Assembly: GCA_963664825.1 (NCBI GenBank)
Contig: OY761614.1
Span: 1,888,001 to 1,952,000 of the forward strand
Origin: an uncultured Holophaga sp.
GTDB taxonomy: Bacteria > Acidobacteriota > Holophagae > Holophagales > Holophagaceae
Direction: 5' to 3'
DNA length: 64,000 nt
The notes beneath the pieces are model-generated. The model searched no databases. It was not told the DNA's origin and saw only the letters and a list, made by a program, of their open reading frames with translations. Shown piece by piece: positions 5,943-63,329 of the stretch. Within the stretch, counting starts at the first letter, position 1, and each line of letters opens with the position of its first letter. The translations under genes were made by a program, and so were the position numbers.

Positions 5943-6092
5943 ACGTGATGTCCGGGCTTCGCCTGGACATCACGTGGGGGTCAAAGGGGGGACACGGGGC
6001 CCGCCTCTAATCGCACAACGCGCGATTAGGAGCAGGCTCAGTGGAGCCTGCGATAGGCGGGAAGCGAACTCTAGCGAGCGGTCCCCTCTTTC
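5943..6092 (+). repeat. Structured repeat family G, copy 1 (intergenic, between convergent uvrA and yjfB)
   Basis: Hairpin ACGTGATGTCC..GGACATCACGT, then GGGGGTCAAAGGGGGGACA, nested hairpins, GCGGTCCCCTCTTT; related copies at 45052, 58364, 63224. Confidence 0.85.
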
Positions 6093-6105
6093 ATGGCAAA
6101 TGGGC

Positions 6106-6288
6106 TCAGGCGCTGGTATCCATCCTGGAGCCGATGCCTGTGCTCTGGTTCATCATCTGGACGAGCTGCAGGGCCTGGGTGGACTGGGCATCCAGGGCCT
6201 TCTTCAGCACCAGGACGCCCGCCGATTCTTGTGTGATCGCCTGGTTCTGGGCAGAGACCGAAGCGGGGGTAATGCCTTGCACGTCCAT
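6106..6288 (-). CDS. YjfB-family putative motility protein
   Basis: 60 aa with GVLVLKKALDAQ..ALQL and C-terminal G..MD; lies downstream of csrA. Confidence 0.75.
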   Translation of the reverse strand: MDVQGITPASVSAQNQAITQESAGVLVLKKALDAQSTQALQLVQMMNQSTGIGSRMDTSA

Positions 6289-6307
6289 GGGAACTCCAGA
6301 CCCTTCC

Positions 6308-6568
6308 TTATCGGTGCTTGGTCAACCGGACTTTAGGGGCACTGCCGCGCAGGAGGGCGGCGGCTTCCTGGATGGGCACCCCCGGGGTGGGGGTCGCGGC
6401 GCGGTTGGCGGCGGCGATGGCCTCGAAGACTTCGCTGCGGTGGACCTGGACTTCCCGGGGGGCCTTGATGCCCAGGCGCACACCCTCCTTGGTGATGCCC
6501 ACGACCATCACTTCGATATTGCCATTGATGATGATGGATTCGTCAGCCTTGCGGGTAATGACGAGCAC
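6308..6568 (-). CDS. csrA: Carbon storage regulator CsrA (long C-terminus, FliW-sensitive type)
   Basis: MLVITRK..ESIII..VRLGIKAPREVQVHRSEVF..ANRAA; GTG start with AGGAGG SD. Confidence 0.96.
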   Translation of the reverse strand: MLVITRKADESIIINGNIEVMVVGITKEGVRLGIKAPREVQVHRSEVFEAIAAANRAATPTPGVPIQEAAALLRGSAPKVRLTKHR

Positions 6569-6636
6569 GAGGGGAGCCTCCTTGGGGCCGTTACGAAGTA
6601 CGCAATGCTTTCCGGATTTGTTATCCCTGGCAACGA

Positions 6637-7416
6637 CTAGCGACCCGCGAGGATGGGGAACTGGAGGGGGTAGGTCTCGGTATTCAGCACCACCTGTCGG
6701 CCGATGCGGGTCTTGCCGTTGATGACCAGGGGGCCCGCCAGGTTGGCGGTCATCTTCCGGGGATCCTCCGGGATGACCACCAGGGCCAGGACCAGGGCGT
6801 CGATGGGCGCCTCCAGGGCGAGGATCGCCGCATCCTCTTCCCCCAGCGGTACCTCGTAATCCGGCTGGATGGCCGCCACGTCCATACAGGTGAAGGAGAT
6901 GTCGGGTTCATCCACGGATTGAAGGAACTTGAGAGGATAGCCCCCTGCGGGTTCGAAGAGACGAAAGGAGCGGATCCGAGGGAAGCCCACCAGGCCCGCC
7001 GGAAAGGTGATCAACACCTCCTCCTTGGCATTGAATACGGGGTATTGGAGTTGGAACTGTTTGCTGTCCAGGACCACCTGAACGCCGATGCGGGTGCGGG
7101 TATTGATGACCAGGGGGCCGGCCAGATCGGCCGTCATCTGGCTGGGATCGGCGGGCACGACCATCAGCAGGAGCACCAGCGCGTCCTGGGGGGACTCCAG
7201 GGAAAGCACCTGGGCCACGGAATCCTCCAGGGGCACCTCGTAGTCCATCTTCACGGCTGCGGCGTCCATGCAGGTGAAGGAGAGATCGGGGTCTTCGGTG
7301 CTTTGGAGGAACTTGAGGGGATACCCATCGACGGGTTCGAAGAGCTGGAATGCCTTCCGATCCGGAAATCCGATGAGACCCTGGGGAAAACGGATGATCA
7401 CTTCGTCCTGGGACAT
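6637..7416 (-). CDS. fliW: Flagellar assembly factor FliW with two tandem domains
   Basis: Two ~130-aa copies of I.FP.GL.GFP, FLQS..PD.SF, MTA(D/N)LAGPLVIN; adjacent to csrA. Confidence 0.9.
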   Translation of the reverse strand: MSQDEVIIRFPQGLIGFPDRKAFQLFEPVDGYPLKFLQSTEDPDLSFTCMDAAAVKMDYEVPLEDSVAQVLSLESPQDALVLLLMVVPADPSQMTADLAGPLVINTRTRIGVQVVLDSKQFQLQYPVFNAKEEVLITFPAGLVGFPRIRSFRLFEPAGGYPLKFLQSVDEPDISFTCMDVAAIQPDYEVPLGEEDAAILALEAPIDALVLALVVIPEDPRKMTANLAGPLVINGKTRIGRQVVLNTETYPLQFPILAGR

Positions 7417-7486
7417 GGCGGCCTCCGAACACTACGGACAAGGCATCGGCTGGGCCGGGGCCTGGTGTTAGTTTAGGCAGAGATCC

Positions 7487-8371
7487 TTAGGAACCGAATA
7501 CATCCCAGAGCGCGTCCAGGCGCTTGGCCCGGAAGCGGGGGTTGGGGATGCAGCGTTCCAGAGCCTCCTTGGATTTGGGAGGATGCTGGACCCGGGCGAG
7601 GATCCAGCGGTTTCCCAGCTCCATCACTGCGGCCACATCCCCCTCGTTGCCCCATTTGAGGCGCAGCTCGGAAAGCAGGTGGGCGCGATGCTCGGCGAGG
7701 GCGCCCAGGCCCATGGATCGGGCCTTTTCCACCACAGGGTGGCGCTCCGGCACCCGGTAGTGATGGATGCGGTTCACCAGATGGCGGATCTCCATGGGCA
7801 GGCGCGCGAGGCGGGGGCCGATCTCGGGATCCTCCTTGCGCAGTTCAGCCTCTTCGGCGAGGCGCCGCAGGAGGGGCAGCAGCAGGGCCGCGTCCCGGGC
7901 CGCATAGCTGATCTGGGAGGACCGGAGGGGCCTCAGCATCCAATTGCTATCCTGCTCTTCCTTCGGGATCTCGATGCCCAGCTTCAGCCGGGCTAGCGTC
8001 TTGAGTCCCGGCTGGGGATAGCCCAGGGCCCTGGCCAAGAGCATCGTATCCATCACGCCGCAGGGCATCACGTCATAGAGCCGCTTGAACACGATGCCAT
8101 CGCCGGAAAAATCGTGGGCGATCCAGGGAATTTCCGCCAAGGCCCGCATGGCGGGCTTCATTAGCGGCCCCAGCGCGATGGGGTCCACGAGCCAGGCCTG
8201 CTCGTGGCTCGCGATCTGAACGAGGGCCATGGCGCAGTGGTGAAAGCCCGTCAGGCTGCACTCCACATCGACTGCCAGGAGGTGGGCCGCGAACCAGTCG
8301 GGCAGCACAACCCCCAGTTTCTCGGGAGTGTCGACGAAGGTGATCGGGAGGTCGTAGCGAGTGAGCGCCAT
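7487..8371 (-). CDS. Ribonuclease D-like DEDDy 3'-5' exonuclease
   Basis: LAVDVE, LVQIA, HDFSGD, DTML, EQDSNWMLRPL..Q.SYAARDA. Confidence 0.85.
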   Translation of the reverse strand: MALTRYDLPITFVDTPEKLGVVLPDWFAAHLLAVDVECSLTGFHHCAMALVQIASHEQAWLVDPIALGPLMKPAMRALAEIPWIAHDFSGDGIVFKRLYDVMPCGVMDTMLLARALGYPQPGLKTLARLKLGIEIPKEEQDSNWMLRPLRSSQISYAARDAALLLPLLRRLAEEAELRKEDPEIGPRLARLPMEIRHLVNRIHHYRVPERHPVVEKARSMGLGALAEHRAHLLSELRLKWGNEGDVAAVMELGNRWILARVQHPPKSKEALERCIPNPRFRAKRLDALWDVFGS

Positions 8372-8450
8372 GAAGACAGTGTGCGACTTTTTCCCGCGGT
8401 TCCAAAGTCGGAATGCGGCGGACCAGCGCTACCATTGCCCGGGGGCGAGG

Positions 8451-8720
8451 ATGAACAAGGCACTCTTCTGGACGACATTCGGAACCGTCTTCCTGGCGGA
8501 GCTGGGCGATAAGACCCAGCTCGCCGCCATGACGGCGACGGCGAAGAGTGGCGCCATCCTGACGGTCTTCTGCGCGGCCAGCGCCGCCCTCGTCTGTGCC
8601 ACGGCCGTGGGTGTCCTGGTGGGAGGCGCGCTCTTCAAACTGGTGCCCGAATTCCTGATCAAGTATCTCGCGGGCTCGCTCTTCATCGGCGTGGGGATCT
8701 GGGTGATCGTGAAGGGCTGA
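8451..8720 (+). CDS. TMEM165/GDT1 (UPF0016) family single-repeat membrane protein
   Basis: FLAELGDKTQLA motif, 89 aa, about 3 TM segments. Confidence 0.9.
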   Translation: MNKALFWTTFGTVFLAELGDKTQLAAMTATAKSGAILTVFCAASAALVCATAVGVLVGGALFKLVPEFLIKYLAGSLFIGVGIWVIVKG

Positions 8721-8745
8721 GCCGAAGGTGCAGTTCCCGGCGGCC

Positions 8746-9462
8746 TCAGCGTCCCAGCTGGAACTGCACGGCCCCCAGGATGGCCGCCGGGCAGGTGACG
8801 GCCCGCAGGATACTCGCCCCCAGGGAGATCGGGGCCCAGCCCGCGTCCCGGAGGGCAGATATCTCCCCATCGGTGATGCCGCCCTCGGGGCCGTGGGTGA
8901 AGGCGAGTCCTTCGCGGCGGAGGGTCGGGTTGAGTTCCTCCGTGCGGAGTTCATAGGCCACCCACTTCTGGGAGAGATCCCAATCCAGCAGGGCCTGGAA
9001 GGGAATGGGATCCCGCAATTCGGGGATGGTGCTGCGGTGGCTCTGTTCGCAGGCGGCTACCACGATGCGCCGCCATCGCTCCAGCCGGGGGCCGATCTTC
9101 CGGCTCTCGTACTGGCTGCGGGCGAAGACCACGGGCTGGATGAGCGTGACCCCCAGTTCCACCGCCCCCGGCAACCATTCGTCCCACAGCGATAACTGAG
9201 CCGTGAGGGGCAGGCAGGCGTGGATCGGGATGGGCGGTTCCCGGTTCTCCTCCAGGTGGGCCACCAACCGCGCGGTGGCGCCGTGCCTCCCCAGTTCGGC
9301 GAGATCAGCCTTCCAGGGTCCCGGGGGCAGGAGCAGTTCCAGGGCATCCCCCGGCTGGAGGCGCAGGACGGCCAGGTGTCGCGCCTGTTCCGGTTCCAGA
9401 GGGACGAGGGTGTTCTCGGCAGGAATACCCGGGAAGGCCAGGACGAAGCGGGGTAGGCTCAC
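8746..9462 (-). CDS. rsmE: 16S rRNA m3U1498 methyltransferase
   Basis: HLAVLRL..GD, ELGV..IQPV, AACEQS.R..IP, GPEGG, SLG.SILRA; probable GTG start at 9462. Confidence 0.92.
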   Translation of the reverse strand: MSLPRFVLAFPGIPAENTLVPLEPEQARHLAVLRLQPGDALELLLPPGPWKADLAELGRHGATARLVAHLEENREPPIPIHACLPLTAQLSLWDEWLPGAVELGVTLIQPVVFARSQYESRKIGPRLERWRRIVVAACEQSHRSTIPELRDPIPFQALLDWDLSQKWVAYELRTEELNPTLRREGLAFTHGPEGGITDGEISALRDAGWAPISLGASILRAVTCPAAILGAVQFQLGR

Positions 9463-9536
9463 GCGGCACTTCCTGTGCCGCGCCCTACGGGCGCCGCCTG
9501 AGGCGGCGTGGCCCTCCGCTCCTGCTTCGGGATCAT
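9459..9536 (-). other. 74-nt coupling cassette with 25-aa mini-ORF MIPKQERRATPPQAAPVGRGTGSAA
   Basis: Begins ATGA and ends GTGA overlapping the rsmE start; same length as, and homologous to, 27402-27479. Confidence 0.75.
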
Positions 9537-9671
9537 GCGGCACCTCCCGACCGCCGGGTGAGGGCCAACGCTTCGCGAATGGGGGGGAAGAACATGGGAC
9601 TCTCCAGAGGAATCTCTGATTCTAGCGGCGCTCTGGGACTAGGCCGATAAACTGGAGGCTTCGGAGGCTCC

Positions 9672-10643
9672 GTGTTTACTGTTCTGCTCCAATCCGCACC
9701 TCTTTGGGCTTGGCTGGGCTTTCATGCCCTGGTCTTCGTGATGCTGGCGCTGGATCTGGGGGTCTTCAATCGGCGCGTCCATGCCCCGAGTTTTCGCGAG
9801 GCGGCCGTCTGGAGTGCCGTGTGGATCACCCTCGCCTTAGTCTTCAACGGCATCATCTTCCACTGGATGGGTCCCCTCAAGGGCACGGAATGGCTCACGG
9901 GCTATGTGCTGGAGAAGAGCCTGAGTGTGGACAATCTCTTCGTGTTCGTCATGCTCTTCGCAGCCTTCGGCGTGGAGATGAAGAACCAGCACCGCATCCT
10001 CTACTGGGGCATCCTGGGGGCGCTCATCATGCGGGCCGCTATGATCCTGATGGGCACGGCCCTGCTGAACCGCTTCGAATGGATGATGTACGTCTTCGGC
10101 GCCTTCCTGGTCTATACCGGCATCAAGATGTTCTTCGTGGAGGAAGCGGAGTCCGACCCCACCAAGAATGGCATCGTGCGGGCCTTCCGGAAGTTCGTGC
10201 CCTTCGATCCCGAGGGCGGACATCAGCATCTCTTCACGTTGAAGCACCACCGGATGTACGCCACACCCATGCTGCTGGTGCTGATCTCCATCGAAGTCTC
10301 GGATCTCATCTTCGCCGTCGATAGCATTCCGGCGGTGCTGGCCATCACCCGGGATCCCTTCGTGGTCTACACCTCGAACATCTTCGCCATCTTGGGCCTG
10401 CGCAGCCTCTACTTCCTCTTGGCCAAGATGATGGATCGCTTCCATCGCCTGAAGGTGGGGCTGGCCGTCATCCTCACCTTCGTGGGCATCAAGATGTGCG
10501 CGGCGCACTGGCTCAAAGTCTGGATGGGCGTTTCGGACCAGGGGCTGATCCTGGTCAGCCTCCTGTTCATCACCGCCGCCCTGGCCGGCAGCATCGTCGC
10601 CAGCCTGGCCTGGCCCGCGGAACACCCCGGGGACAAGTCGTGA
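9672..10643 (+). CDS. TerC/Alx family membrane protein
   Basis: EKSLSVDNLFVF, DLIFAVDSIPAV, TSNIFAILGLRSLYF. Confidence 0.95.
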   Translation: MFTVLLQSAPLWAWLGFHALVFVMLALDLGVFNRRVHAPSFREAAVWSAVWITLALVFNGIIFHWMGPLKGTEWLTGYVLEKSLSVDNLFVFVMLFAAFGVEMKNQHRILYWGILGALIMRAAMILMGTALLNRFEWMMYVFGAFLVYTGIKMFFVEEAESDPTKNGIVRAFRKFVPFDPEGGHQHLFTLKHHRMYATPMLLVLISIEVSDLIFAVDSIPAVLAITRDPFVVYTSNIFAILGLRSLYFLLAKMMDRFHRLKVGLAVILTFVGIKMCAAHWLKVWMGVSDQGLILVSLLFITAALAGSIVASLAWPAEHPGDKS

Positions 10644-11578
10644 AGGTCTGGCGCCATGGCCTGGAAGAGGCCCCCCTCCATTCGGGTCCCACCGTCCTCA
10701 CATTGGGTAATTTCGATGGCCTCCATACGGGCCATCGGGAACTCCTCTCCCTGGCCGTGCGCCGCGCCAAGGAGCGGGGCATCACGGCCACCGTGGTCAC
10801 CTTCGATCCCCACCCGACGGTGGTGGTGGCGCCGGAGCGGAGACCCAAGCAACTCACGACTCTGACCCAGCGCCTGGCGGCCTTCGAGGCCGTGGGTTTG
10901 GATCTCGCCTGGGTGATCCCCTTCAGTCGGGCCTTTTCCCAACAGAGCGCTCAGAGTTTCCTGACGTCCCTGGACCGGGTGTTGGAACCCGTGGAACTCC
11001 ATGTGGGGCGCGCCTTTCGTTTCGGGCGGGACCGGCTGGGGGATCTCCTGGCCCTGGAGGAATGGGGTCTGGAGGCCGGCGTCAAGGTCATGCCCCACGC
11101 CTTCAAGGCCTACGACGAGGGGTGGCTCTCCAGCACCCGGGTCCGGGAGGCCCTCGAATGGGGCGATGTGGACGAGGCTCTCCGCCTTCTGGGTCGGCCG
11201 TACGCCATCACGGGGGTGGTGGTGGAGGGCGATCGCCGGGGCCGCCATCTGGGCTTTCCCACGGCCAATCTCCAATGGGAGCAGGAACAGCTGCCCGGCT
11301 TCGGCGTCTATGTGACCGAGGTGCGAGGCCCCCGGCTGGTCCATCCCCGCCTGGGCCTTACCAACGTGGGCCAGAAACCCACCTTCCAGGGACAGAACCT
11401 CAGCATCGAGACCTTCCTGCCGGATTTCGATGGCGATCTCTATGGCGCCAGGCTAGAACTGGCCTTCCTTCATCGCATCCGAGGGGAAGAGCGCTTCGAG
11501 GGCGTGGAGGCCCTGCGCGAGCGCATCGCCCGGGACGTGGAAACGGGGAGGACGTGGTGGAGGGAACGCCGGGGATGA
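10640..11578 (+). CDS. ribF: Bifunctional riboflavin kinase/FAD synthetase
   Basis: LGNFDGLHTGH, TFDPHP, SSTRVR, GR.LGFPTAN; GTGA overlap with terC. Confidence 0.96.
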   Translation: MKVWRHGLEEAPLHSGPTVLTLGNFDGLHTGHRELLSLAVRRAKERGITATVVTFDPHPTVVVAPERRPKQLTTLTQRLAAFEAVGLDLAWVIPFSRAFSQQSAQSFLTSLDRVLEPVELHVGRAFRFGRDRLGDLLALEEWGLEAGVKVMPHAFKAYDEGWLSSTRVREALEWGDVDEALRLLGRPYAITGVVVEGDRRGRHLGFPTANLQWEQEQLPGFGVYVTEVRGPRLVHPRLGLTNVGQKPTFQGQNLSIETFLPDFDGDLYGARLELAFLHRIRGEERFEGVEALRERIARDVETGRTWWRERRG

Positions 11579-11681
11579 CCCAGCGGGTCTTCTTCGCCGC
11601 CCTGCGGCTCAGGGCTGAATCCACCGGCGCCCGTGGCGCGGCCAGGCCCGCCTCCGGCCCTGAGGCTCCGTTGTGACGACG

Positions 11682-12209
11682 ATGCGTTTGTTCTTCGCCC
11701 TGGACCCGTCTCGAACGCTGAAGGAAGGGCTGATCGCCTTCCAGGCCTCCCATCCGGCCCTGCCCTGGACCGACCCCTGGAGGCTGCATCTCACCCTGGC
11801 CTTCCTGGGGGAGCTTCCAGAAGAGAGGCTTCCGTCCCTAAGGGAGATCGGGACCCGGGTCGCGGAATGCTGCGCGCCCCTCACGCTCCGCACGGCGGAG
11901 TTGGGGGGCTTTCAGCGTCCTTCCAGGGCCCGAGTCCTGTGGCTCGGAGTGGAGAAAAATCCCGCACTGGAATCCCTGGCGGCGGGGCTCCGAGAGGCGC
12001 TTCAGCGGGAGGGCCTCCCGCTGGATGGGAAACCCTTCGCGGCCCATCTGACCGTGGCCCGTTTCCGGGTCCCGACGGATATCGCGTTCTTGGAGCCTGC
12101 GCCGGAACCCCTTGTCTTCCAGGTTCCGGAACTGGTCCTCCTCCGCAGCCATCTGGGGCCCCAAGGGTCTCGCTACGAGAGGATTTGCGCCTTTCCCTTC
12201 CAGGGATGA
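11682..12209 (+). CDS. thpR: RNA 2',3'-cyclic phosphodiesterase (2H family)
   Basis: MRLFFAL, HLTLAFLG, F.AHLTVAR. Confidence 0.92.
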   Translation: MRLFFALDPSRTLKEGLIAFQASHPALPWTDPWRLHLTLAFLGELPEERLPSLREIGTRVAECCAPLTLRTAELGGFQRPSRARVLWLGVEKNPALESLAAGLREALQREGLPLDGKPFAAHLTVARFRVPTDIAFLEPAPEPLVFQVPELVLLRSHLGPQGSRYERICAFPFQG

Positions 12210-12244
12210 GGCGCGATCCTTTTCTAGGAGGCTATCTCCCGCGG

Positions 12245-12922
12245 TCAGATGCTGGCCAGCACCTTCTCGAAGGAAGGGTCGGCGCGGTCCTTGAAGAGGG
12301 CCTTGTATTCGGCATAGTCATGCCACGCCTGATCCCGGTCCCCCTTCAGGCGGTGGAGTTCCAACAGGGTGGTCCAGTAGAGGGGGGCCCAGGGCGTATC
12401 GGGCTTGGCGGCATGGCGCAGGGGCTGGAGGGTCGAGGCCACGGCGTCGGCCTGGCCTAGGGCGAGCTGCCGCTGGGCCGTGCGCAGCCGGGCCCAGGGG
12501 TCCGTACCCTCAGGCGCCTGGGGAGCCTTGCCGTCCAGTTGGAGGCGCCAGGAGGCCAGGAGACCCTGGGTGGTGGCCGTGGCTGCGCTCGGGGCGCGCT
12601 TGGCCAGGGCCTCGAGTTGAGGCAGGTGGGCCCGCATGCGCTGCTCCAGCTCAGCGGGGGGCACGGGGCTCAGGCCATCCCCTTGCACTTCCGTGAGGAG
12701 TTCGGCCACGGCCACCTCGTGCTTCTCGAGCACATTGGCGCGCCAGGCCAGGAAGCCGAAGGTGCCCAGCACCAGGACGGCCACGATGCCCGCCCCGATG
12801 AGCAGGGGCTTGAGGAGGGTGATCTGGGAGTCCTCGCCCCGGGCCAGCTTCTGCTGAAAGGCTTGCAGGCTCTGGGCCGGCTTCTGGACCTGGATTTCCT
12901 TGCTCTTGGGATTGGTGGCCAT
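12245..12922 (-). CDS. Single-pass membrane protein with helical/TPR-like domain (YfgM-like)
   Basis: N-terminal TM LLIGAGIVAVLVLGTFGFLAW followed by Ala/Leu-rich helices; family assignment tentative. Confidence 0.6.
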   Translation of the reverse strand: MATNPKSKEIQVQKPAQSLQAFQQKLARGEDSQITLLKPLLIGAGIVAVLVLGTFGFLAWRANVLEKHEVAVAELLTEVQGDGLSPVPPAELEQRMRAHLPQLEALAKRAPSAATATTQGLLASWRLQLDGKAPQAPEGTDPWARLRTAQRQLALGQADAVASTLQPLRHAAKPDTPWAPLYWTTLLELHRLKGDRDQAWHDYAEYKALFKDRADPSFEKVLASI

Positions 12923-12972
12923 TCCGTATGCTCCGAAGCTCCCAGGATGCCCCAGCACCCCTTCCATCGCAC

Positions 12973-13000
12973 TTGAAAAAGCGCCCATCCCTGATAACCT
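12973..13000 (+). promoter_or_regulatory. Sigma70-type promoter of tRNA-Phe
   Basis: TTGAAA-16 nt-TAACCT with extended TG, 10 nt before the tRNA. Confidence 0.6.
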
Positions 13001-13010
13001 GACTGTTCCC

Positions 13011-13086
13011 GCCTGGGTAGCTCAGTTGGTAGAGCAATGGACTGAAAATCCATGTGTCGACGGTTCGATTCCGCCTCCAGGCACCA
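13011..13086 (+). tRNA. tRNA-Phe(GAA)
   Basis: GCCTGGG/TCCAGGC acceptor stem, TAGCTCAGTTGGTAGAGC D arm, ATGGA-CTGAAAA-TCCAT anticodon arm, GGTTCGATTCC, encoded CCA. Confidence 0.98.
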
Positions 13087-13124
13087 AAACGAATGTGGCC
13101 CCTCCGCGGGGCCACATTCGTTTT
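13087..13124. terminator. Intrinsic terminator after tRNA-Phe
   Basis: AAACGAATGTGGCCCC..GGGGCCACATTCGTTTT long stem with A/T tails. Confidence 0.85.
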
Positions 13125-13348
13125 GGGGAGGCAGAATCGAATCACAGGACCCTGGACTCGGGCCCTGACGGAGGAGGACCGACGACGGAAGCGGGTCCTA
13201 GGGGCCGTGCGGCCGAGCCAGCTGCGAGAGCCGCGCCAGCGAGGGATTCCGCCAGCCACCCAGATATTGAATCTCGCTGGCTTGTCCGCGTCCTCCGATC
13301 GAAGGCCCCGGGGGTGGGTTCAGGGCGGCAACCTCGGCGCCCAGAATG

Positions 13349-13386
13349 TTTCTAGAAAAAAAGTTCTAGAACTATTTTTCTAGAAA
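13349..13386. promoter_or_regulatory. Probable operator of the BlaI-family repressor
   Basis: 38-bp palindrome with 1 mismatched pair; three TCTAGA boxes at 14-bp spacing, 32 nt upstream of the repressor ATG. Confidence 0.7.
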
Positions 13387-13418
13387 GCTCATTCTACTTC
13401 TGACGATACGGAGCGAGC

Positions 13419-15538: not shown

Positions 15539-15596
15539 CTTCGGGCTTGAGCCAGGGGCCCCTCGAATGGGGTATGTTTCTTAGGGAGATCCTTCC

Positions 15597-18830: not shown

Positions 18831-18848
18831 TACGAGTTGCATTTAAAA

Positions 18849-20178: not shown

Positions 20179-20197
20179 ATTTAAAAGCATGAAAGTG

Positions 20198-20289: not shown

Positions 20290-20317
20290 AATCTTTTTTT
20301 TGAACGCGAAACCCTCT

Positions 20318-43848: not shown

Positions 43849-44153
43849 ACCTGGGGCAGAAACGAGGGGAATGGTCTATCAGTGCAGGCCCGATGGCCCA
43901 ACGCGTCATGTTATAATTAATGCACCAAAAATAGAAGGAATTACTGTCCATACATCCTTGCGATGTGGCCTAAATCACTGCCCCTCATCGCGATGAGCTG
44001 CCTGGACTCCAGCCCAGGTTTTGGGAGCCCTGAGGAATGGCCGACCTGCTTTTGCCAACTGGGAATCATGATAAGCCGGAAGGGCGGGCGGGGCAACGCG
44101 GGGAAAGTGCCCAGGTCGGCCTCAATGCCTCTGCCCTCGGGTATCCTGCGCTC

Positions 44154-45317
44154 ATGAACCCGCTCACTTCCATCCTCAATGCCCGCCTCGCCTCGGGGCC
44201 CGTCCCGGCCTCCGAGGTCATGGCCCTGGCGCTGTATCATCCCCAGTTCGGCTACTACCGCAGGGCGGAGGGGCCCTGGGGCTTCGAGGGCAAGGACTAC
44301 TACACGGCCCTGGATTGCGGCCCCCTGCTGGGCATGGCCCTGGCCCGGCGCCTGGAGGGAGCCTGGGAGGCGCTCGGGCGCCCTGGGCGCTTCACGGTGC
44401 TGGAGCCTGGTGCGGGGCGGGGCTGGCTGGGGCGGGATCTCCTGGCGGCGGCCCTCGAGCCCTTCGCGTCGGCCCTGTATTATGTTCACAGGGACGATAA
44501 TCCGGCGGCGCGGAGGCTGGCGGAGGAGGCGCTGGCGCCCTACCTAGAGGCGGGGCGGGCCCGCTTCGTGACCGAATTCGAGGCCCTGGAGCCCTTCCAG
44601 GGGGCCGTCATCTCCAACGAACTCCTGGACGCGCTTCCGGCCCAGCCCTGGCGCTGGACGGGGGAGGCCTGGGAGCGGGAGGTGCTGAGTCAGGAGGGCC
44701 CGGCTTGGGTGAGCGCCGATCCGGGAGAGGCGGGGGCCTGGTTCAAGGCCCAGGCGGAGGGGGGCCTGGAACCTGGGGATGCCAGCGTCTGGGCGGAAGG
44801 CCTGCCCGGTCTGGTGAAGGGGCTGACGGGAAGCCTGAAGGCAGGCCTCTTCCTGGCCATCGATTACGGCGATTCGGCCGCCCGGCTCCTGGCCAAGGGG
44901 GCCGATCTGCGCCGTTATCGGGGGCATTCGGTGGACGGCGCCTGGTGGGAGGCCCTGGGGGAAGGGGATCTCACGGCAGACGTGGACTTCACACGGCTGG
45001 GAAGCCTGCTGGAGGAGGAGGGACTGACGGGGGCCACGCCATGGTTGGCTGACCCAGGGTGCGGGCTTTGCCCGAGCCCTGGGTGGGGGTCAAAGGGGGG
45101 ACATTCGCGAGCCTTGGCGAGCAGGCGGTCCCCCCTTTCTTATCATCTGGGGAAGTGGATTCGTGAAAACGCGCCCCTGGCCGAATGGGAGGCCCGGTGG
45201 CAGGAACTGGATGGGGCCACCCGGAGGGCCCGCATGGAGAACCTCCTGGCCCTGACCCTGCCGGGGATGATGGGGGACCGCTTCAAGGTGATGGAGGCCT
45301 GGAAGGGGGGACGGTGA
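44154..45317 (+). CDS. MidA/NDUFAF7-type SAM-dependent methyltransferase with in-frame repeat insertion
   Basis: M.LALYHP..GYY, DYYTA, E.GAGRG, SNELLDALP, IDYG, DLTADVDF, MGDRFKV. Confidence 0.9.
   Translation: MNPLTSILNARLASGPVPASEVMALALYHPQFGYYRRAEGPWGFEGKDYYTALDCGPLLGMALARRLEGAWEALGRPGRFTVLEPGAGRGWLGRDLLAAALEPFASALYYVHRDDNPAARRLAEEALAPYLEAGRARFVTEFEALEPFQGAVISNELLDALPAQPWRWTGEAWEREVLSQEGPAWVSADPGEAGAWFKAQAEGGLEPGDASVWAEGLPGLVKGLTGSLKAGLFLAIDYGDSAARLLAKGADLRRYRGHSVDGAWWEALGEGDLTADVDFTRLGSLLEEEGLTGATPWLADPGCGLCPSPGWGSKGGHSRALASRRSPLSYHLGKWIRENAPLAEWEARWQELDGATRRARMENLLALTLPGMMGDRFKVMEAWKGGR
45052..45139 (+). repeat. Structured repeat family G, copy 2 (inside CDS, in frame)
   Basis: ACCCAGGG..CCCTGGGT hairpin, GGGGGTCAAAGGGGGGACA..GCGGTCCCCCCTTT. 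Confidence 0.85.
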
Positions 45318-47393: not shown

Positions 47394-47408
47394 TTGAAGG
47401 CGCTTCCT

Positions 47409-48065: not shown

Positions 48066-48083
48066 CTAGTTCTTGGAGAAGGC

Positions 48084-48461: not shown

Positions 48462-48471
48462 AGGAAACGCC

Positions 48472-50657: not shown

Positions 50658-50716
50658 ATGAGCCGCTTTTCAAGGTGTTGTCCCCCGGGCATGATGAGAA
50701 CTGCCGCCGACGGATT

Positions 50717-52114: not shown

Positions 52115-52115
52115 T

Positions 52116-53639: not shown

Positions 53640-53643
53640 AACG

Positions 53644-56118: not shown

Positions 56119-56205
56119 TCGTGCTCCTCGGGTGTCAATGGATGAGTGTACAGGCAGCCCGAGAGGGCGATTAGCCGCTATGCTCGAATATTCTGGGTTG
56201 TTGCC

Positions 56206-57393
56206 ATGCGCTTTTCGGCCAAGTTCACTACCAGGACCGGCGAAGTCCTCGTCCGGGATTATGAAGGCGCGTCCATCGAGGACGTGCAGGCGCGGGTCCT
56301 GGGGGAGGGGAGCTTCCCCCTGGAGGTGAAGAAGGCGGCCTCGGCCTTTCGGCGGCAGCGCACGCTGGCGGCCGATTCCCTCATCCTCTTCAACCAGGAA
56401 CTGCTGGCCCTCCTCAAGGCCGGCATTCCGCTGCTCCAGTCCCTGGAACTGCTGGTGGGCCACGGGAAGGATCCGCTGCTGCGGGATTCCCTGGAACGAG
56501 TGGTGGAGCTGCTCCGGGAGGGCATGGCCTATTCCGAGGCCCTAGAACAGGCGGGCACCTTCCCGGCGGTCTACCGGGCCAATGTGGTGGCCGGCGAGCG
56601 CAGCGGCACCCTGCCCGAGGTTCTCTCCCGCTGGCTGGCCTTCCAGGCCTTCGCCCAGAAGAGCCGCAGCCGCATCGTGGAGGCCATGGTCTATCCGACC
56701 TTCCTGGTGGTGGTGCTCTTCATCTCCCTGGGCGTGATCTTCAATGTGGTGCTGCCGAAATTCCAGGAGATCTACTCGGACGGATCGGTGGAGATGCCCA
56801 CGCCCACACGCATCCTGCTGGGTCTGGGCGCCTTCATGCGGAGCACCATCTGGGTGCAGGGCCTGTTGCTGCTGGGTTTGGCCTTCGTGCTGCGCTGGAT
56901 GTTCACCTCCGAGGCCGGGAAGCGCCTCCTGGAGCGCATTCTGCTTAGCATTCCCAAGATGGGCACCCTCTATCGCATGTACCATTCCTCGGTCTTCTGC
57001 CGGACCCTGAGCGTGCTCCTATCGGGGGGCATGCCCGTGCTCCAGTCGCTGGAAGTGATCCAGCGCACCACGGCCAGCGAGCGGATGAAGTTGCGCCTGG
57101 TGACGGTGATCGAACTGGTGCGGGGGGGCTCTTCCCTACATGGCGCCCTGGAACAATCGAAACTGCTGGACCCCCTCGCCATCGAGATGACGCGGGTGGG
57201 CGAACAGAGCTCGGCCCTGCCCGAGATGCTGGATCATGTGGCGAACTTCTTCGATCAGGAAGTGGAAAAGGCCACTGCTGCCGTGACAGGGCTCATCGGC
57301 CCCGTGCTGATCCTCTTCATGGGCGTGGTGGTGCTGGGCCTGTTGCTGGCCATCTACATGCCCATGTTCAATGCGGGACAGGCCGTGAAGTAG
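56206..57393 (+). CDS. Type II secretion F / PilC family inner-membrane platform protein
   Basis: LL.AGIPLLQSL, AGERSGTL, YP, VGEQS..L..ML, AIYMPMF. Confidence 0.93.
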   Translation: MRFSAKFTTRTGEVLVRDYEGASIEDVQARVLGEGSFPLEVKKAASAFRRQRTLAADSLILFNQELLALLKAGIPLLQSLELLVGHGKDPLLRDSLERVVELLREGMAYSEALEQAGTFPAVYRANVVAGERSGTLPEVLSRWLAFQAFAQKSRSRIVEAMVYPTFLVVVLFISLGVIFNVVLPKFQEIYSDGSVEMPTPTRILLGLGAFMRSTIWVQGLLLLGLAFVLRWMFTSEAGKRLLERILLSIPKMGTLYRMYHSSVFCRTLSVLLSGGMPVLQSLEVIQRTTASERMKLRLVTVIELVRGGSSLHGALEQSKLLDPLAIEMTRVGEQSSALPEMLDHVANFFDQEVEKATAAVTGLIGPVLILFMGVVVLGLLLAIYMPMFNAGQAVK

Positions 57394-57446
57394 GGCCGAG
57401 GCCGAGTTGCATTCCTTGCGCCAAGCTCCGGGAGAAGGCTCCCCCG

Positions 57447-57562
57447 CTGGCCCAGAGCCTGCCGGGGTGGGGGATCGCTTCAGGGTGATGGAGGCCCGGA
57501 AGGCGCGCTGAAGGTTCACCGTCGAAAAAATATTCACGCGGAGGAACGGAGCCCACGGAGAA
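57447..57562 (+). pseudogene. Degenerate copy of the midA 3' end plus adjacent repeat half
   Basis: Aligns by eye with 45246-45372, with a 4-nt deletion and scattered substitutions. Confidence 0.8.
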
Positions 57563-57622
57563 GGAACCAAAAAGGGGTTCTTCGCGGAATTCTGGGGAAG
57601 GCCAGGGCACACCTGCGGCTTC

Positions 57623-58182
57623 GGATGGACGAGGCTCAAAGCAAGCCAGGAATTCGTGAAATTGGATCCCGAACCTTCATCCCCGCAGATCCCCTGTCCT
57701 AGTGGGGCCTGGGCTCATCTCCCCACCCGGCGGCGAAGGGGCGCTGGATTTGAACAATGATGAACGCCGATTCACGCCGATGGGGTGAGGCCTGGGGATC
57801 TTCATCCGCGTTCATCCGCGTGCATCAGAGTTGAATCCTTTTCGCAGTGAACCGGCCGCCTCCACGCAAACCGCGATCAGGGATGAAGAGCCTGGGATCC
57901 CTTCACTGGTTGGCGAGGCCTCAAGACTGAACTATGGACACCAGCGAGAAACGCTAGAACCAGTGATAGCCAGTGAGGACAGTGAGGAGAGAAATGACCG
58001 ATGAGGTTATTTGCGGGAACAGGCTCTCGGACATCATGGTTTTCCTGAACCCCTTGAGAGGGTGCCAGCCAGAGCCCCTGCCTTTTCACCGTTCTCACCG
58101 GTAGATCTTGGACCCTGGGAAGCGGTGAACCGCCTCCTCAAACCAGGAATTGGTGAAATTGGATCCCGAACCTTCATCCCCG
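57623..58182. repeat. Dispersed repeat modules A (57623-57859), B (57915-57986) and partial A (58143-58182)
   Basis: Similar to 23070-23299 and 22913-22985. Confidence 0.88.
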
Positions 58183-58203
58183 GCTATCCCCGGCGCGGCC
58201 CCC

Positions 58204-58338
58204 CTACAGCGTCCCGGCGTAGGGATCCGGCCAGTAGGGGTCCCGGGTGTAGGGTTCCCGCATCCAGACTTCCTGGGGAAATTCCATGGGTTCCTGGGAC
58301 TGGATGGGTTCGTAGGGGGGAGGAGGCAGACCTGTCAT
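58204..58338 (-). CDS. Putative 44-aa small protein MTGLPPPPYEPIQSQEPMEFPQEVWMREPYTRDPYWPDPYAGTL
   Basis: Hand-translated; mostly G/C-ending codons, TAAAAT 7 nt before the ATG, repeated (E/D)PY. Confidence 0.5.
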   Translation of the reverse strand: MTGLPPPPYEPIQSQEPMEFPQEVWMREPYTRDPYWPDPYAGTL

Positions 58339-58363
58339 GGACCCGATTTTACAGGGAAATCAG

Positions 58364-58449
58364 GCGGGGTGGCCAGGCTTTGCCTGGACACCCCGCGGGG
58401 GTCAAAGGGGGGACATCGCGACCGGAGGGAACAGGCGGTCCCCCCTTTC
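58364..58449 (+). repeat. Structured repeat family G, copy 3 (just past the rlmN stop)
   Basis: GCGGGGTG..CACCCCGC hairpin, GGGGGTCAAAGGGGGGACA..GCGGTCCCCCCTTT. Confidence 0.85.
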
Positions 58450-58452
58450 TGG

Positions 58453-59538
58453 TTAGACCCGGCGCGATTCTTCACGTATCAACTGTCCGCAGGCCCCTTG
58501 CACGTCCCGGCCCCGGCTCTTGCGCACGGTCACGAAGCAGCCCCGGGCCTTCAGCCGGGCCACGAAGGCATTCAGATTGGCCTCCTGGGAACCCTGGCAG
58601 GGAGAGGCGGCGTGTTCATTGAGGCCGATGAGGTTGAGATTGTGGCGCTCCCGCAGGGGGCCCAGCCAGTCCGCAAGGCGGTCTGCGTCCTCCAGGCTGT
58701 CGTTGCCCGTCATGAGGACGTACTCGAAGGTGAGCCTCTCCTTGGCCCCCAGGGGCCATTCCTCCAGGGCCTGGCGCAACCGGGCCAGGTTCCAGGCCCG
58801 GTTGACGGGCATGATGGCGCTCCGGGCCTCGTCGGTGGTGGCGTTGAGGGAGATGGCCAGCCAGGGGCGGGGACTCATCTGGGCCAGCCTCTGGATGCCG
58901 GGGACCAGGCCCGAGGTCGAGACGGTGATCCGCTTGGTGCTGATATTCAGGCCCTGGGGGTGGTTGAAGACCCGGATGGCTCGGTGCACATGCTCCAGGT
59001 TGTGGAGGGGTTCGCCCATGCCCATGAAGACCAGGGTGATCTGGTGGGGTTTCTCGGGGCCCAGCTCCTTCAGGAGCGTCAGCACCTGGCCTGTGATCTC
59101 CCCGGCCGTGAGGTTGCGTCGGATGCCCATGGAGCCCGTGGCGCAGAAGGCGCATCCCATGGCGCAGCCCACCTGGCTGCTGATGCAGAGGGTGACCCTG
59201 GGATTGCGCACGGCCCGGGGCATGTGCACGGCCTCGATGCGCTGACCGTCCGCGAGGCCCAGGACCACCTTGGTGCTGCCGTCCTCTGATGCATGGCGCT
59301 CCAGGATCGCCGGCAGGGTCCCATCCAGGCGGGCCGCCATCCATTCCCGGATCTCCTTGCTCAGGCGGGGGCGCTCCTCCACCCAGACCCAGGGGTGCTG
59401 GCACTGGGTGAAGATGTGATCGGGCCTCCCCGGTGCCCCCAAGGCCTCGAAGTCCTCCGGGAGGAGGGCGAAGGCTGAAGGCAGTCCCTGTCGTTCGGGA
59501 GCGGGGCGATCCCAGGCGTGGTGCGCGATCTCTACCAT
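58453..59538 (-). CDS. rlmN: 23S rRNA m2A2503 / tRNA radical-SAM methyltransferase
   Basis: TLCISSQVGCAMGCAFCATG, FMGMGEPL, STSG, SRG.DV.GACGQL. Confidence 0.96.
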   Translation of the reverse strand: MVEIAHHAWDRPAPERQGLPSAFALLPEDFEALGAPGRPDHIFTQCQHPWVWVEERPRLSKEIREWMAARLDGTLPAILERHASEDGSTKVVLGLADGQRIEAVHMPRAVRNPRVTLCISSQVGCAMGCAFCATGSMGIRRNLTAGEITGQVLTLLKELGPEKPHQITLVFMGMGEPLHNLEHVHRAIRVFNHPQGLNISTKRITVSTSGLVPGIQRLAQMSPRPWLAISLNATTDEARSAIMPVNRAWNLARLRQALEEWPLGAKERLTFEYVLMTGNDSLEDADRLADWLGPLRERHNLNLIGLNEHAASPCQGSQEANLNAFVARLKARGCFVTVRKSRGRDVQGACGQLIREESRRV

Positions 59539-59584
59539 GCCTCCATGGTACAGGGCCCTGGGTGGGAAACGGGTCCCCCATTTG

Positions 59585-59684
59585 GAACGCGAAGGCCGCG
59601 AAGGGGGCTAAGCGCGCGAAGAACTGAGGCCTTTGCCCGAAGTCCCATTCGCGCCCTTCGCTTCCTTGGCGCTCTTCGCGTTCT
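59585..59684. repeat. Periodic palindromic repeat (CGCGAAG type)
   Basis: GAACGCGAAGGCCGCGAAG.. / ..TTCGCGCCCTTCGC..CTTCGCGTTC, abutting the FKBP stop. Confidence 0.7.
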
Positions 59685-60155
59685 TCAGTTGCCCTTGGGG
59701 GCTGTGGCCTCACCCTTGAGGCTCACCACTTCCACCTCGAAGAGGAGGGTGGCTCCCGGGGGAATGACGCCGCCGGCGCCCTTATCGCCATAGGCCAGTT
59801 CGGGGGGGATGATCAGCACGCGTTTGGCGCCCTTCTTCATGCCAAGCACGCCTTCATCCCAGCCCTTGATGACCTGACCTGCGCCCAGCACGAATTCGAA
59901 GGGCTTCCGGCGGTTCAGGTTGGAATCGAAGAGTTTCCCCTGGCGGCCCTTGGCTGTGTCGTAGATCCAGCCCCGGTAGAGCATGCCGGGAGTCTGCCCC
60001 TGGGCGGCGCCCTTGCCGCTGCCCGGCTTGATCTCCGCGATCTGCAGGCCGCTGGCCGTCTTGGTGAAGGTGCCTGAGAGCTTGTGGTCCGCGAAGAGGG
60101 GCGCGGCCAAGAGGACCAGGGCCAGGGCGCCGAATAGCCATCGGGAAAGACGCAT
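59685..60155 (-). CDS. FKBP-type peptidyl-prolyl isomerase, exported
   Basis: Signal peptide, YRGW, FDS, QVIKGWDEG, IPPELAYG, IPP.ATLLFEVE. Confidence 0.96.
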   Translation of the reverse strand: MRLSRWLFGALALVLLAAPLFADHKLSGTFTKTASGLQIAEIKPGSGKGAAQGQTPGMLYRGWIYDTAKGRQGKLFDSNLNRRKPFEFVLGAGQVIKGWDEGVLGMKKGAKRVLIIPPELAYGDKGAGGVIPPGATLLFEVEVVSLKGEATAPKGN

Positions 60156-60233
60156 GGAAACCTCACGAAGAATGGAAAATAGGTTCTAAACCGTTGTCAC
60201 GAATGAATCTTACTATCCCAGCGGCAAAGGGAG

Positions 60234-61505
60234 CTACCCGGCCAGATCCTGCTGGCGGATCTCGCCGTGCTTCCGCGTGCCCAGGGCCGAGACCGCCATC
60301 TGCTCCGGGCGCAGCACCTCCCGGGCCACCCGGTTGAGGGTATCCAGGTCCACGGCCTCGATCTCCTGGATCTGGCTATCGAGATCGAGGATGGCATCCA
60401 TGTGGATGGCCTGATGGGCCAGGGAGAACATCCGGGCGCTGGTGGATTCCTGGCTGAAGACTAGGCTCGTGCGGGCCTGGAGCTTAGCGCGCCCCAGTTC
60501 TTCCAGCGTGGCGCCCTGGGCTGCCAGGCGCACGCATTCGGCGGCGCCCCGCTGCACCAGTTCCCGGGCCTTGTCGGAGGCGCAGCTGGCGCTGATCTGC
60601 AGGGCGCCTCCCTCCCGGTAGTGGCTGAGGTAGCTGCCGATCTGGTAGCAGAGGGCGTGCCTCTCCCGGAGTTCCATGAAGAGCCGGGAGGACATGCCGC
60701 CCCCCAGCACATGGCTCAGGAGGTTCACCGCCACGCGATCCGGGTGGCGGTGGTTGGGGGCGGGAAATCCCAGGATGAGGCTGGCCTGCTGGAGATCCTT
60801 CCGGGGGGTATTGAGGATGAAGGGATGGGGGGCGTCCGTGGAGGGGTCCTCCCCGGGGGCGCCATCGGGCAGGCGGTCCAGGACGGGGCGCAGCATTTCG
60901 AGAAAAGCCTGCGGTTCGATATCGCCCGCGGCCGCGATGAGCAGATTGGGCGCCCGGTAGGTCTTTCGGAAGAAGGCCCGCGCCTCTTCCACGCCATAGC
61001 CTGCGACCTGCTGGGGGCGGCCCAGGATGGGGTGGGCCAGGGCGCCGCCCTTCCAAAAATTCAGGTAGAAGAGCTCATTGACCCAGTCATCCGGCTGGTC
61101 TTCGCTCTGGGAGATCTCCTCCAGGATCACCTTGCGTTCCCGCACCAGCTCTTCGGCATCGAAGCGGGGCGTCGTGACGAGGTCCCCCAGCAGCGCGACC
61201 ATCTCCGGCAACTGTTCCCGCAGCGCCTTCCCATAGAAACAGGCCGTTTCCTTGCCCGTGAAGGCGTCCACGTTCCCGCCCAGGGCGTCCGTGGCCGCGC
61301 TCATGCTCACGGGGTCCGGGAAGCGCTCCGTGCCCTTGAAGACCGTGTGCTCGATGAAATGGGCCAGGCCCTCTTCGGCCGCGGTCTCGTGGATGCTGCC
61401 CCGTTTCACCCAGAATCCCACCGAGCAGCTCCGCACATGGGAGAGGGGTTCGATCAGGATCTCGGTGCCCGTGGGCGTTTGGGTGCGGAAGGTGGATTCG
61501 GCCAT
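60234..61505 (-). CDS. M16 family zinc peptidase
   Basis: GLAHFIEH..FKGT (HxxEH), AFTGKE, ER.VILEE, LGGGMSSRLF.ELRE. Confidence 0.95.
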   Translation of the reverse strand: MAESTFRTQTPTGTEILIEPLSHVRSCSVGFWVKRGSIHETAAEEGLAHFIEHTVFKGTERFPDPVSMSAATDALGGNVDAFTGKETACFYGKALREQLPEMVALLGDLVTTPRFDAEELVRERKVILEEISQSEDQPDDWVNELFYLNFWKGGALAHPILGRPQQVAGYGVEEARAFFRKTYRAPNLLIAAAGDIEPQAFLEMLRPVLDRLPDGAPGEDPSTDAPHPFILNTPRKDLQQASLILGFPAPNHRHPDRVAVNLLSHVLGGGMSSRLFMELRERHALCYQIGSYLSHYREGGALQISASCASDKARELVQRGAAECVRLAAQGATLEELGRAKLQARTSLVFSQESTSARMFSLAHQAIHMDAILDLDSQIQEIEAVDLDTLNRVAREVLRPEQMAVSALGTRKHGEIRQQDLAG

Positions 61506-61524
61506 GGGACCAGTGTAAGGCTCT

Positions 61525-62304
61525 TCACCCTTCGGCTTCGGTTCCAGCCAGCCCGATAGCCGCAGTCTGGAGTCTCCAGCCGCTGGCGGCCCAGCAGAGG
61601 AGGCCGAAGACGACGAACACGAGGATGGCCAGGTGCCAAGGTGTGCTGATCTGCTCCTGGGCGAGAAGCTGGGAGGTGCCCACAGAGCTGCCCCGGCTGC
61701 CGGCGATGCTTTCGATGTAGTGCTGGAAGGTGATGCGCTGGAGGTTGCCGGGGAAGATGCGCACCAGGGGATCGAAGATCAAGAGATAGAGCGCCCCCCA
61801 GAGGGTGCCCCGCTTGAAGACTAGGCCCAGGAAGGTCATGAAGGCCAGTTCGGCCCAATAAGCGGCCAGTAGGGCCGCGGCCATGAGGGGCAGGCTGGCG
61901 AACTCGGCCCCCAGGCCCCCCAGGCCCGCGATGGCCACCAGGATCCAGAGGGCCCCCCAGGCGTACCAGAGCAGGCCCTTGCCGAAGGGCAGGGCCCAGG
62001 CCTGGGCCGGACGGGTGAGCACCAGGGGCAGTGTGCGCTGCTCTAAATCTTCCCGGATACCCGCCGGGGCGGCCACCAGCACGAGGATGGGCAGGGCCAG
62101 GTGGGCGAGGACCTTATGGAAGACCATGAGAACCTCCGCCGATCCGAAATTCAGATGCTGCATGCGGAGGAGGGTGGCCAGCCCGTAGCTGAGGAAGACC
62201 GGCAGCAGGAGGACGAGGGCGCAGGCCCAGCCGCGGGCCTGGAGGACGCGAGGGAAGTAGCCCCGGAAAAGGGCCGAGATGGTGCGGGCAGGAGTGGGCA
62301 TCAT
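61525..62304 (-). CDS. ABC-2-type permease
   Basis: About 6 TM segments, EDLEQRTL..VLTRP...GK. Confidence 0.8.
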   Translation of the reverse strand: MMPTPARTISALFRGYFPRVLQARGWACALVLLLPVFLSYGLATLLRMQHLNFGSAEVLMVFHKVLAHLALPILVLVAAPAGIREDLEQRTLPLVLTRPAQAWALPFGKGLLWYAWGALWILVAIAGLGGLGAEFASLPLMAAALLAAYWAELAFMTFLGLVFKRGTLWGALYLLIFDPLVRIFPGNLQRITFQHYIESIAGSRGSSVGTSQLLAQEQISTPWHLAILVFVVFGLLCWAASGWRLQTAAIGLAGTEAEG

Positions 62305-63329
62305 GCGTGATCCTTGGTGAGGAACTGGAACACGGCCTCCAGATTGAGATCCAGGGGATCGAGAGAACGGAGGGGCAGGGCGCCCTCCAGCACCGCCGCC
62401 TGGAGCTTGGGCAGGAAGGAGCGGGGATTGCGCACGGCCAGCACGGCGCCCCCCTCCTCCATGCGCAGGGCCACCAGTTCCTCCTGCTCCACGGCCCAGC
62501 GGGCCACGGCCTGGGAGGATTCGGCACCGATGCGCAGTTCCACGGGATGGCGGTCCAGCAGTGCGCGGATCTCGGGGACGCTGCCCTCCGCCAGGAGCCT
62601 GCCCCGGAAGAGGAGCAGGATGCGGTCCGTGAGGTGGGCCACTTCACCCAGGATGTGGCTGGAGACCAGGATGCGGCGGCCCTTGGCGGCCAGGCCCCGG
62701 AGCACCTCCATCAGCAGGAGGCGCGCCTCGGGGTCCATGCCATTGAAGGGCTCGTCCAGCAGGAGGAATTCGGGATCGTGCAGCAGGGCCTGGGCCAGGC
62801 GCATGCGCTGACGCATGCCCTTGGACATTTCATGGAAAGGTTTGGCACCGTTCTGCGCCATGCCCACCGTGGCCAGGGCCCGGTCCATGGCGGCCCGGAG
62901 CTCGGCCCCCTCGAGGCCGGAGAGTTCCCCCATCATCCTCAGCCACGGAATGCCTCGCAGGCCCGCGGGGAAGCGGTCCCCCTCGGGCACGAAGCCTAGG
63001 CGCGAGAGCACCCTTGGGTTGCGGAAGGGCGCCTCGCCAAAGATCCGCACCTCGCCGCCGGAGGGGGGCAGCAGGCCCGCCAGGAGTTGGATGAGGGTGG
63101 ATTTCCCGGCCCCATTGGGCCCCAACAGACCCGTGATGCCGCCCCCTGCGGGCAGTTCGAAGGAGGTGGGGGAAAGGCCGAGGATATCGCCGTAGCGCAG
63201 GGACGCGCGCTGGAGGGAGACGGACGGGGTGTTCGGGCTTGACCCGATCTCCCCGTGGGGGGACACGGGGGGGACATCGCAAGCGGAGCGAGCAGGCGGT
63301 CCCCCCCGTTTCATGGCGGTGGCGCTCAT
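62301..63329 (-). CDS. ABC transporter ATP-binding protein with repeat-derived N-terminus
   Basis: GPNGAGKST, MSKGMRQR, LLLDEP, SSH; ATGA overlap with the upstream permease stop. Confidence 0.93.
   Translation of the reverse strand: MSATAMKRGGPPARSACDVPPVSPHGEIGSSPNTPSVSLQRASLRYGDILGLSPTSFELPAGGGITGLLGPNGAGKSTLIQLLAGLLPPSGGEVRIFGEAPFRNPRVLSRLGFVPEGDRFPAGLRGIPWLRMMGELSGLEGAELRAAMDRALATVGMAQNGAKPFHEMSKGMRQRMRLAQALLHDPEFLLLDEPFNGMDPEARLLLMEVLRGLAAKGRRILVSSHILGEVAHLTDRILLLFRGRLLAEGSVPEIRALLDRHPVELRIGAESSQAVARWAVEQEELVALRMEEGGAVLAVRNPRSFLPKLQAAVLEGALPLRSLDPLDLNLEAVFQFLTKDHA
63224..63312 (+). repeat. Structured repeat family G, copy 4 (inside the ABC ATPase CDS, antisense)
   Basis: ACGGGG..CCCCGT hairpin, GGGGGGACACGGGGGGGACA..GCGGTCCCCCCCGT. 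Confidence 0.8.

Follow-up and report, generated by a model that had tools for sequence, protein, structure and literature searches.

Rickettsia palindromic elements (RPEs) are palindromic repeats of about 100–150 nucleotides (nt) that lie between genes and in frame inside unrelated functional genes, and their mobilizer is not known (PMC3733652, PMC3184786). BoxC/PIT/TM-ECO repeats, as described in PMC4666352, occur in many copies and join a purine-pyrimidine hairpin to a mirror arm rich in G and C, and no mobilizer is reported there. Repetitive extragenic palindromic (REP) sequences and their BIME and REPIN forms are non-autonomous hairpin repeats (PMC8266576, PMC6006769, PMC3733652), and TnpA-REP cleaves single-stranded DNA at C|T according to PMC8266576. 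The GIY-YIG nuclease Ssn with its NTS/SRM repeats provides a precedent (PMC11893778) for a hairpin repeat served by a small non-HUH nuclease specific for single-stranded DNA. Mitochondrial GC clusters (PMC4478555) and double-hairpin elements are GC-rich multi-hairpin micro-elements with AG junctions, tandem and nested copies, and no enzyme of their own. A 64,000-nt window of an uncultured Holophaga sp. (contig OY761614.1, positions 1,888,001 to 1,952,000) contains four copies of a gene-less structured DNA repeat of about 91–96 nt that resembles each of these systems in part, including a junction that reads C|T on one strand. It belongs to a family of small bacterial repeats that is apparently undescribed. 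The element works like RPEs and the BoxC repeats of E. coli, yet it lacks the tested defining features of RPEs, BoxC/PIT, REP/RAYT, Ssn-NTS, and GC clusters.

The element is mobile, as is evident from the comparison of occupied with empty sites, from a burst of young copies, and from copies that are nested or arranged head to tail. Empty orthologous sites, which an earlier note on this DNA had proposed looking for, were found for six unrelated, intact genes that hold the element in frame in the manner of RPEs. In the MidA-like methyltransferase gene, copy 2 (Table 1) adds 33 codons, and 22 of 23 relatives are empty. One relative, G004, has this insertion too, at 87 nt and with another internal reading frame; since its insertions and deletions shift the internal frame yet restore the frame of the gene, selection on the frame and not on the peptide is suggested. 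The ABC ATPase gene has gained 32 codons from copy 4, read antisense and placed after MSAT, while all 21 matched relatives (24 searched) are empty; contigs from two of four sequencing runs skip 96 nt at this site, with 3 ambiguous letters. In-frame 93-nt copies in genes for a YgfK-like oxidoreductase and for HydE are each missing from five of five relatives. HisH carries 210 nt net in frame, with four of five relatives empty and one copy in G004. For ValS, to which 27 amino acids are added, the matches of 10/10 relatives split at the site and the 7/7 sites displayed are empty. Copies also occur within open frames of DinG (three in tandem), an RND permease, and a second ABC ATPase. Judging from the intact frames, the copies inside genes are probably translated, so that foreign peptides would be tolerated in core enzymes with the reading frame alone being kept. 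A length divisible by three holds for the young 93-nt subtype; as a general rule it was rejected (27/115 copies overall). Outside of coding sequence, the copy 1 site was free of the element in all relatives' loci that aligned, which were nine of ten.

A recent burst is seen in Holophaga foetida, where the central 23-mer has 15 exact matches and at least 14 copies are near-identical and young. These young copies sit at RCAGA with flanks that are unrelated or were independently struck, and nearly all have CAGA at both junctions. They often lie within a CACAGAG repeat, the empty form of which, beside a GxxExxY gene, has CAGA once. Element copies also nest into the CAGA of sibling copies, form head-to-tail 96-nt arrays joined at CA|GAC, and carry cargo in the inner loop, such as the second repeat family in copy 1. 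Because a cultured type strain shows a recent burst of an element whose ends are precise and whose target is short, the movement of enzyme-less palindromic repeats such as RPEs becomes testable. A host regulatory structure, either a terminator or a hairpin for RNA stability, that gene conversion and slippage had passively multiplied would account for the many copies that abut stop codons or promoters, for the T runs after stem 2, and for the tandem arrays. It would not account for clean single insertions in non-homologous coding sites in both orientations, nor for precise ends and near-identical young copies, and is considered very improbable; some copies may nevertheless have been co-opted secondarily. 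As a separate observation, GxxExxY genes are bracketed by inverted low-complexity repeats of the CACAGAG, CACGGAT, and CAGGAT types, and the element lands there repeatedly.

The four window copies are presented in Table 1. A unit extends from the G preceding hairpin 1 to about 18 nt past GTC, as in the 93 nt of copy 3. The copies, hairpin stems, GGGGG linker, stem 2, and the compensatory change in copy 4 that were described in the earlier note are all located where it placed them. Two of the four copies (1 and 3) are intergenic, as it reported, and the two that it saw inside ORFs (2 and 4) are inside real genes. The right junction of copy 3, TTA|G, falls on the TAA stop of a convergent radical SAM gene, and three junction letters of copy 4 (CGG) are assignable to either side. 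The long insert of copy 1 is a second repeat family nested in the inner loop. This composite recurs at 3415284-3415441 of the genome, making two occurrences in total, and the nested repeat stands alone at five genome sites (2349527, 688239, 2188003, 2302711, and 2302880). The second repeat family has a branched fold with an 8-base-pair (bp) covarying hairpin.

Table 1. Element copies, their parts, and associated genes in the window (SAM, S-adenosylmethionine; aa, amino acids).
Feature	Coordinates	Strand	Description
Copy 1	5942..6098	+	157 nt, intergenic, directly past uvrA stop
Copy 1, hairpin 1	5943-5975		
Copy 1, G-linker and purine arm	5976-5993		
Copy 1, inner loop	5994-6080		
Copy 1, pyrimidine arm	from 6081		
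Nested second repeat	5996..6069	+	in copy 1 inner loop
Copy 2	45051..45145	+	in frame in the sense direction; 99 nt (33 aa) net; exact ends eroded
Copy 2 host gene	44037..45317	+	MidA/NDUFAF7-type SAM methyltransferase (Methyltransf_28); start probably near 44154
Copy 3	58363..58455	+	93 nt, intergenic
Radical SAM gene	58453-59538	-	convergent with copy 3
Copy 4	63223..63318	+	96 nt; antisense, in frame, N-terminus of ABC ATPase
Copy 4 host gene	62301..63329	-	ABC ATPase; ATG overlaps TGA of upstream permease-like gene

The host genome is one contig of 3.47 Mb with 63.7% G+C. A scan of this genome for further copies with an iterated nhmmer profile returned 45 matches (34 at E<1e-3) and 30 loci on both strands. 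The remark that all copies lie on the same strand is correct inside the window, where all are on the plus strand; it does not extend to the genome, in which 19 plus and 11 minus loci indicate chance. The suspected replichore bias is also absent, with 16 of 30 loci carried by leading-strand sequence (p=0.86) when the origin and terminus are placed by GC skew only.

From RNAalifold analysis of 17 genome copies, the element folds into a 15-bp hairpin with a 3-nt loop followed by a 10-bp stem 2. Pairing is found in 94.1% of cells in comparison to 82.7% in shuffled sequences, none of 500 shuffles scored as high, and slid partner registers pair in only 44–53%. Two-sided changes occur in 12 of 25 pairs, above 500/500 shuffles and all slid registers, which upholds the covarying stems first noticed in the window. 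Two features escaped the earlier note: the YA|G junctions considered below and the fact that the G-linker is a mirror of the stem 2 purine arm. Subtype A has the sequence GGGGGT-CAA-AGGGGG, and replacement of its A-T pair by G-C is accompanied by a change of the mirror T to G; in subtype B the sequence is GGGGAG-CAC-GAGGGG, and the pyrimidine arm carries a T. Allowed mirror triads number 240/252 in register versus 162/210 and 206/252 when slid by one position. Of the 84 triads at the two positions that are informative, 78 are allowed in comparison to 60.1 after shuffling, and although 0/20000 shuffles were as high, such p-values overstate the case because there are few independent events among kin. 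The same triad pattern is present in 67 copies that were fetched without the biasing pattern.

The element has the sequence features of a class I purine motif, namely a third strand in mirror order and triads of the G.G-C and A/T.A-T kinds, and the G-linker and stem 2 are thus predicted to form a class I purine-motif DNA triplex. Wobbles read on the G-run strand favor G.T over A.C both in hairpin 1 (77 versus 23 among 110 distinct hairpins) and in stem 2 (19 versus 3 among 76 stem-2 types), from which we infer folding of the G-run strand. Holder 2015 (PMC4666352) applies the name class I to arms in the order third strand, purine, pyrimidine and states that RNA does not form triplexes of the purine motif; this suggests that the element works as single-stranded DNA. 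The inner loop lies within the stem 2 duplex, ranges from 10 to 95 nt, and is tolerant of cargo.

The ends are precise and short in sequence. Among 131 parsed copies, hairpin 1 is 33 nt long in 123 and is preceded by G in 126, position -2 is variable (A 82, G 28, T 16, C 5), and YAG peaks 18–20 nt past GTC. The hairpin foot reads Y-R-G and then A/G-C. Junctions are YA|G at both ends, or C|TR when read on the C-rich strand, and, most simply, both ends and the target would be cut at YA|G with no duplication. Target duplication lengths of 0–5 nt equal those of shuffles in 204 copies, and the few longer cases come partly from arrays. Terminal inverted repeats are absent, since the ends GACG...TGGCA are not inverted. 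A DDE-type MITE (a miniature transposable element with inverted repeats) was rejected for lack of terminal inverted repeats, for duplications as in shuffles, and for the unequal flanks of the YgfK copy (CGG left, CAG right).

These features are best reconciled, with modest confidence, by a non-autonomous element that moves as folded single-stranded DNA through a nuclease/strand-transferase acting in trans. The G-run strand would fold into the 33-nt hairpin, with the G-linker doubling back to lie along stem 2's purine strand in a triplex. The GGCTYYGCC apex and the triplex would be the binding sites of an HUH-like or other single-strand nuclease/strand-transferase supplied in trans. With the hairpin serving as a ruler, cuts would be made at the hairpin foot and about 18–20 nt past stem 2, and the freed unit would be joined to a target at YA|G. 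A mobile gene passing through, rather than a resident one, probably encodes the enzyme. Copies in frame would persist by landing in loops or termini that tolerate them, with the frame alone being kept. Several observations weigh against this proposal. The C|T that corresponds to the TnpA-REP cut site is on the strand opposite to the apparent folding strand, and there is no replichore bias, unlike IS200/IS605 as described in PMC6006769. The triad covariation derives from few independent changes (T.A to G.G; G.G to A.A or T.A), and the G.T wobble bias is equally compatible with RNA folding. Junction variants occur in all combinations, with CGG on both sides of copy 4, as a staggered cut would give. 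Finally, no enzyme was found beside copies, either at Y1, Y2, GxxExxY/DUF559/GIY-YIG, and IS110/RT loci or among neighboring open reading frames (ORFs).

The junction variants bear on a different pathway in which the unit leaves as a small double-stranded circle that is integrated by a site-specific recombinase of the IS110-like or tyrosine type, with a 2–4 bp staggered overlap at an AG/CT core and the hairpins serving as binding signals or cruciforms. Donor junction and target are alike (CA|GA), left and right variants are mixed (AG/AG 58, GG/AG 9, GG/GG 8, AG/GG 8), and the sister family in genome G158 has donor-like or target-like letters at either junction. However, the target consensus is just about 5 nt, a single strand is indicated by the mirror triads and by wobbles that differ between strands, and no IS110 transposase (PF02371) was matched in H. 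foetida, the host of the young burst, or in genome G007. A recombinase of this kind is accordingly regarded as unlikely, and derivation from IS110 itself was rejected: a core-like CT is present, yet the PF02371 matches are missing from both genomes.

A partner enzyme was sought at up to 30 partner loci for each family listing with flanks of about 1.5 kb, for several families in five genomes, in a collection where metagenome-assembled genomes (MAGs) lose mobile genes. No Y1 transposase is present in this genome. Y1 matches occur in 22/131 family genomes and are mostly IS200-like, but none of 31 Y1 loci carries the element, and the adjacent HUH, RAYT, or IS200-like gene envisaged by the earlier note was not found at the loci covered. 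The element is likewise missing from 30 Y2 loci (Y2 in 43/131 family genomes), from 36 GxxExxY/DUF559/GIY-YIG loci in five genomes, and from eight IS110/RT loci. The neighbors of 414 loci comprise 551 ORFs, and a scan of 270 out of the 303 small representatives revealed no recurring nuclease, the neighbors being housekeeping genes together with one HNH and one Uma2. A parent element that is autonomous and carries a gene between its ends was rejected, since unpaired ends in H. foetida and genome G080 are decayed copies, and no long-insert parent was present among the genome and metagenome matches listed, in which an IS481-like piece interrupts one copy. The one remaining lead is the subterminal hairpin of the H. 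foetida IS200, which shares the GGCTCTGCC apex with hairpin 1. An IS200/IS605-derived MITE was nonetheless rejected because the IS200 ends share only this apex and orientation is unbiased (16/30). The H. foetida IS200-like element is itself present in three copies, with a TTAT target and subterminal hairpins that have the apex of hairpin 1. At 828961-832443 of the present genome, an integrase and an IS91-like element with an interrupted transposase lie next to a GxxExxY gene.

In another pathway, a structured RNA transcript of the unit would be retroposed by a borrowed reverse transcriptase (RT), as proposed for yeast mitochondrial GC clusters. The one-strand bias of G.U-type wobbles and two intact group II-type RT genes in H. 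foetida would suit such a route, and GC clusters are flanked by AG repeats with retroposition suggested for them in PMC4478555. However, RT was found in only two of five copy-rich genomes and not in this one, neither a duplication nor a tail is seen, and the mirror triads would have no reading in RNA if purine-motif triplexes fail there, as stated in PMC4666352. Retroposition appears quite unlikely.

Set against the described systems, the element differs from each. It lacks the 5' CGTC tag that precedes an 8–9 bp stem in RPEs, and the sole CGTC is at the 3' end of its opposite strand; its architecture also differs from the one described for the CGTC families (CGTC-1/-4 for RPE-6/-4). Moreover, it consists of a hairpin and predicted triplex modules with covarying stems, and its hosts are free-living Acidobacteriota and Myxococcota. 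The arm order is class I (third strand, purine, pyrimidine), whereas that of BoxC is class II in PMC4666352, and there is no match to the TM-ECO consensus CCCTCNCCC-GGGNGAGGG-GGGNGAGGG given there. Unlike BoxC/PIT, it is fused to a 33-nt ruler hairpin, has a 10–95 nt loop in the duplex, and is found in and between genes; DUF559 occurs in just one of five element genomes, weakly and not adjacent. The GTAG guide, inverted dimers, resident RAYT, and REPtron of REP/RAYT systems are all lacking, and a RAYT-like gene in G158 is associated with other repeats. The proposed kinship with REP elements and HUH (RAYT) enzymes is thus not sustained, given the missing GTAG and 5'-CGTC tags and the Y1 and replichore results above. 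The Ssn-NTS repeat is another repeat, and GIY-YIG loci of five genomes hold no element copy. In contrast to mitochondrial GC clusters, the element resides in bacterial chromosomes without general duplication.

No Rfam family matched the element at the gathering score, and no description was found in the literature searched, with subscription papers, supplements, and ISfinder outside that search. Together with the empty sites and the young burst, the Rfam result bears out the earlier suggestion of an undescribed, structure-conserved mobile repeat that enters genes in frame like an RPE. The element is notable for its covarying triplex signature and its tractable active host. The three-way covariation offers rare natural evidence of selection on an intrastrand DNA triplex, a matter left open for BoxC/PIT.

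A covariance model matched 101 of 126 Holophagaceae genomes versus 0 of 24 other genomes of the class. A pattern search across the phylum matched 19/30 family genomes versus 0/370 others. Among the matches listed from collection scans, whose patterns fix part of the linker and which give lower bounds, close relatives with inner loops of 53–59 nt are present in Myxococcales and other deltaproteobacterial MAGs. An 84-nt sister family in G158 has 246 overlapping pattern matches at about 165 sites. A generic triplex scan recovered too few known copies (5) and was excluded from the counts. Plasmid and phage collections gave no full-element match, and the 3, 0, and 37 pattern matches in viral contigs are the G-run hairpin core, none being the full element. 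A superfamily of micro-elements may be imagined, tentatively and as less probable than the pathway proposed above, that is recognized through a natural DNA triplex and a ruler hairpin and moved by an enzyme class unlinked to transposition so far. Such a superfamily would have spread between Acidobacteriota and Myxococcota, reached about 165 copies in one genome, and added loops of 27–33 residues to housekeeping proteins such as ValS.

Related repeats were also noted. The G158 sister copies are near-identical and often in tandem and in ORFs, with right flanks that resemble the element's own start. A shorter sister family in the present genome (hairpin followed by GGGGG-NNN-GGGGG...CCCCC) is located at 1632921(-), 1952252(+), and 2288397(-), one copy being 250 nt past the window end. 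Viral contigs, including some of about 3.2 kb, have the same hairpin layout of G-run, short loop, G-run, and C-run, which is often repeated. In Geothrix-like genomes, an old shared copy upstream of proS ends at TAGACT, a -10-like hexamer, and co-option of this copy into a promoter is possible.

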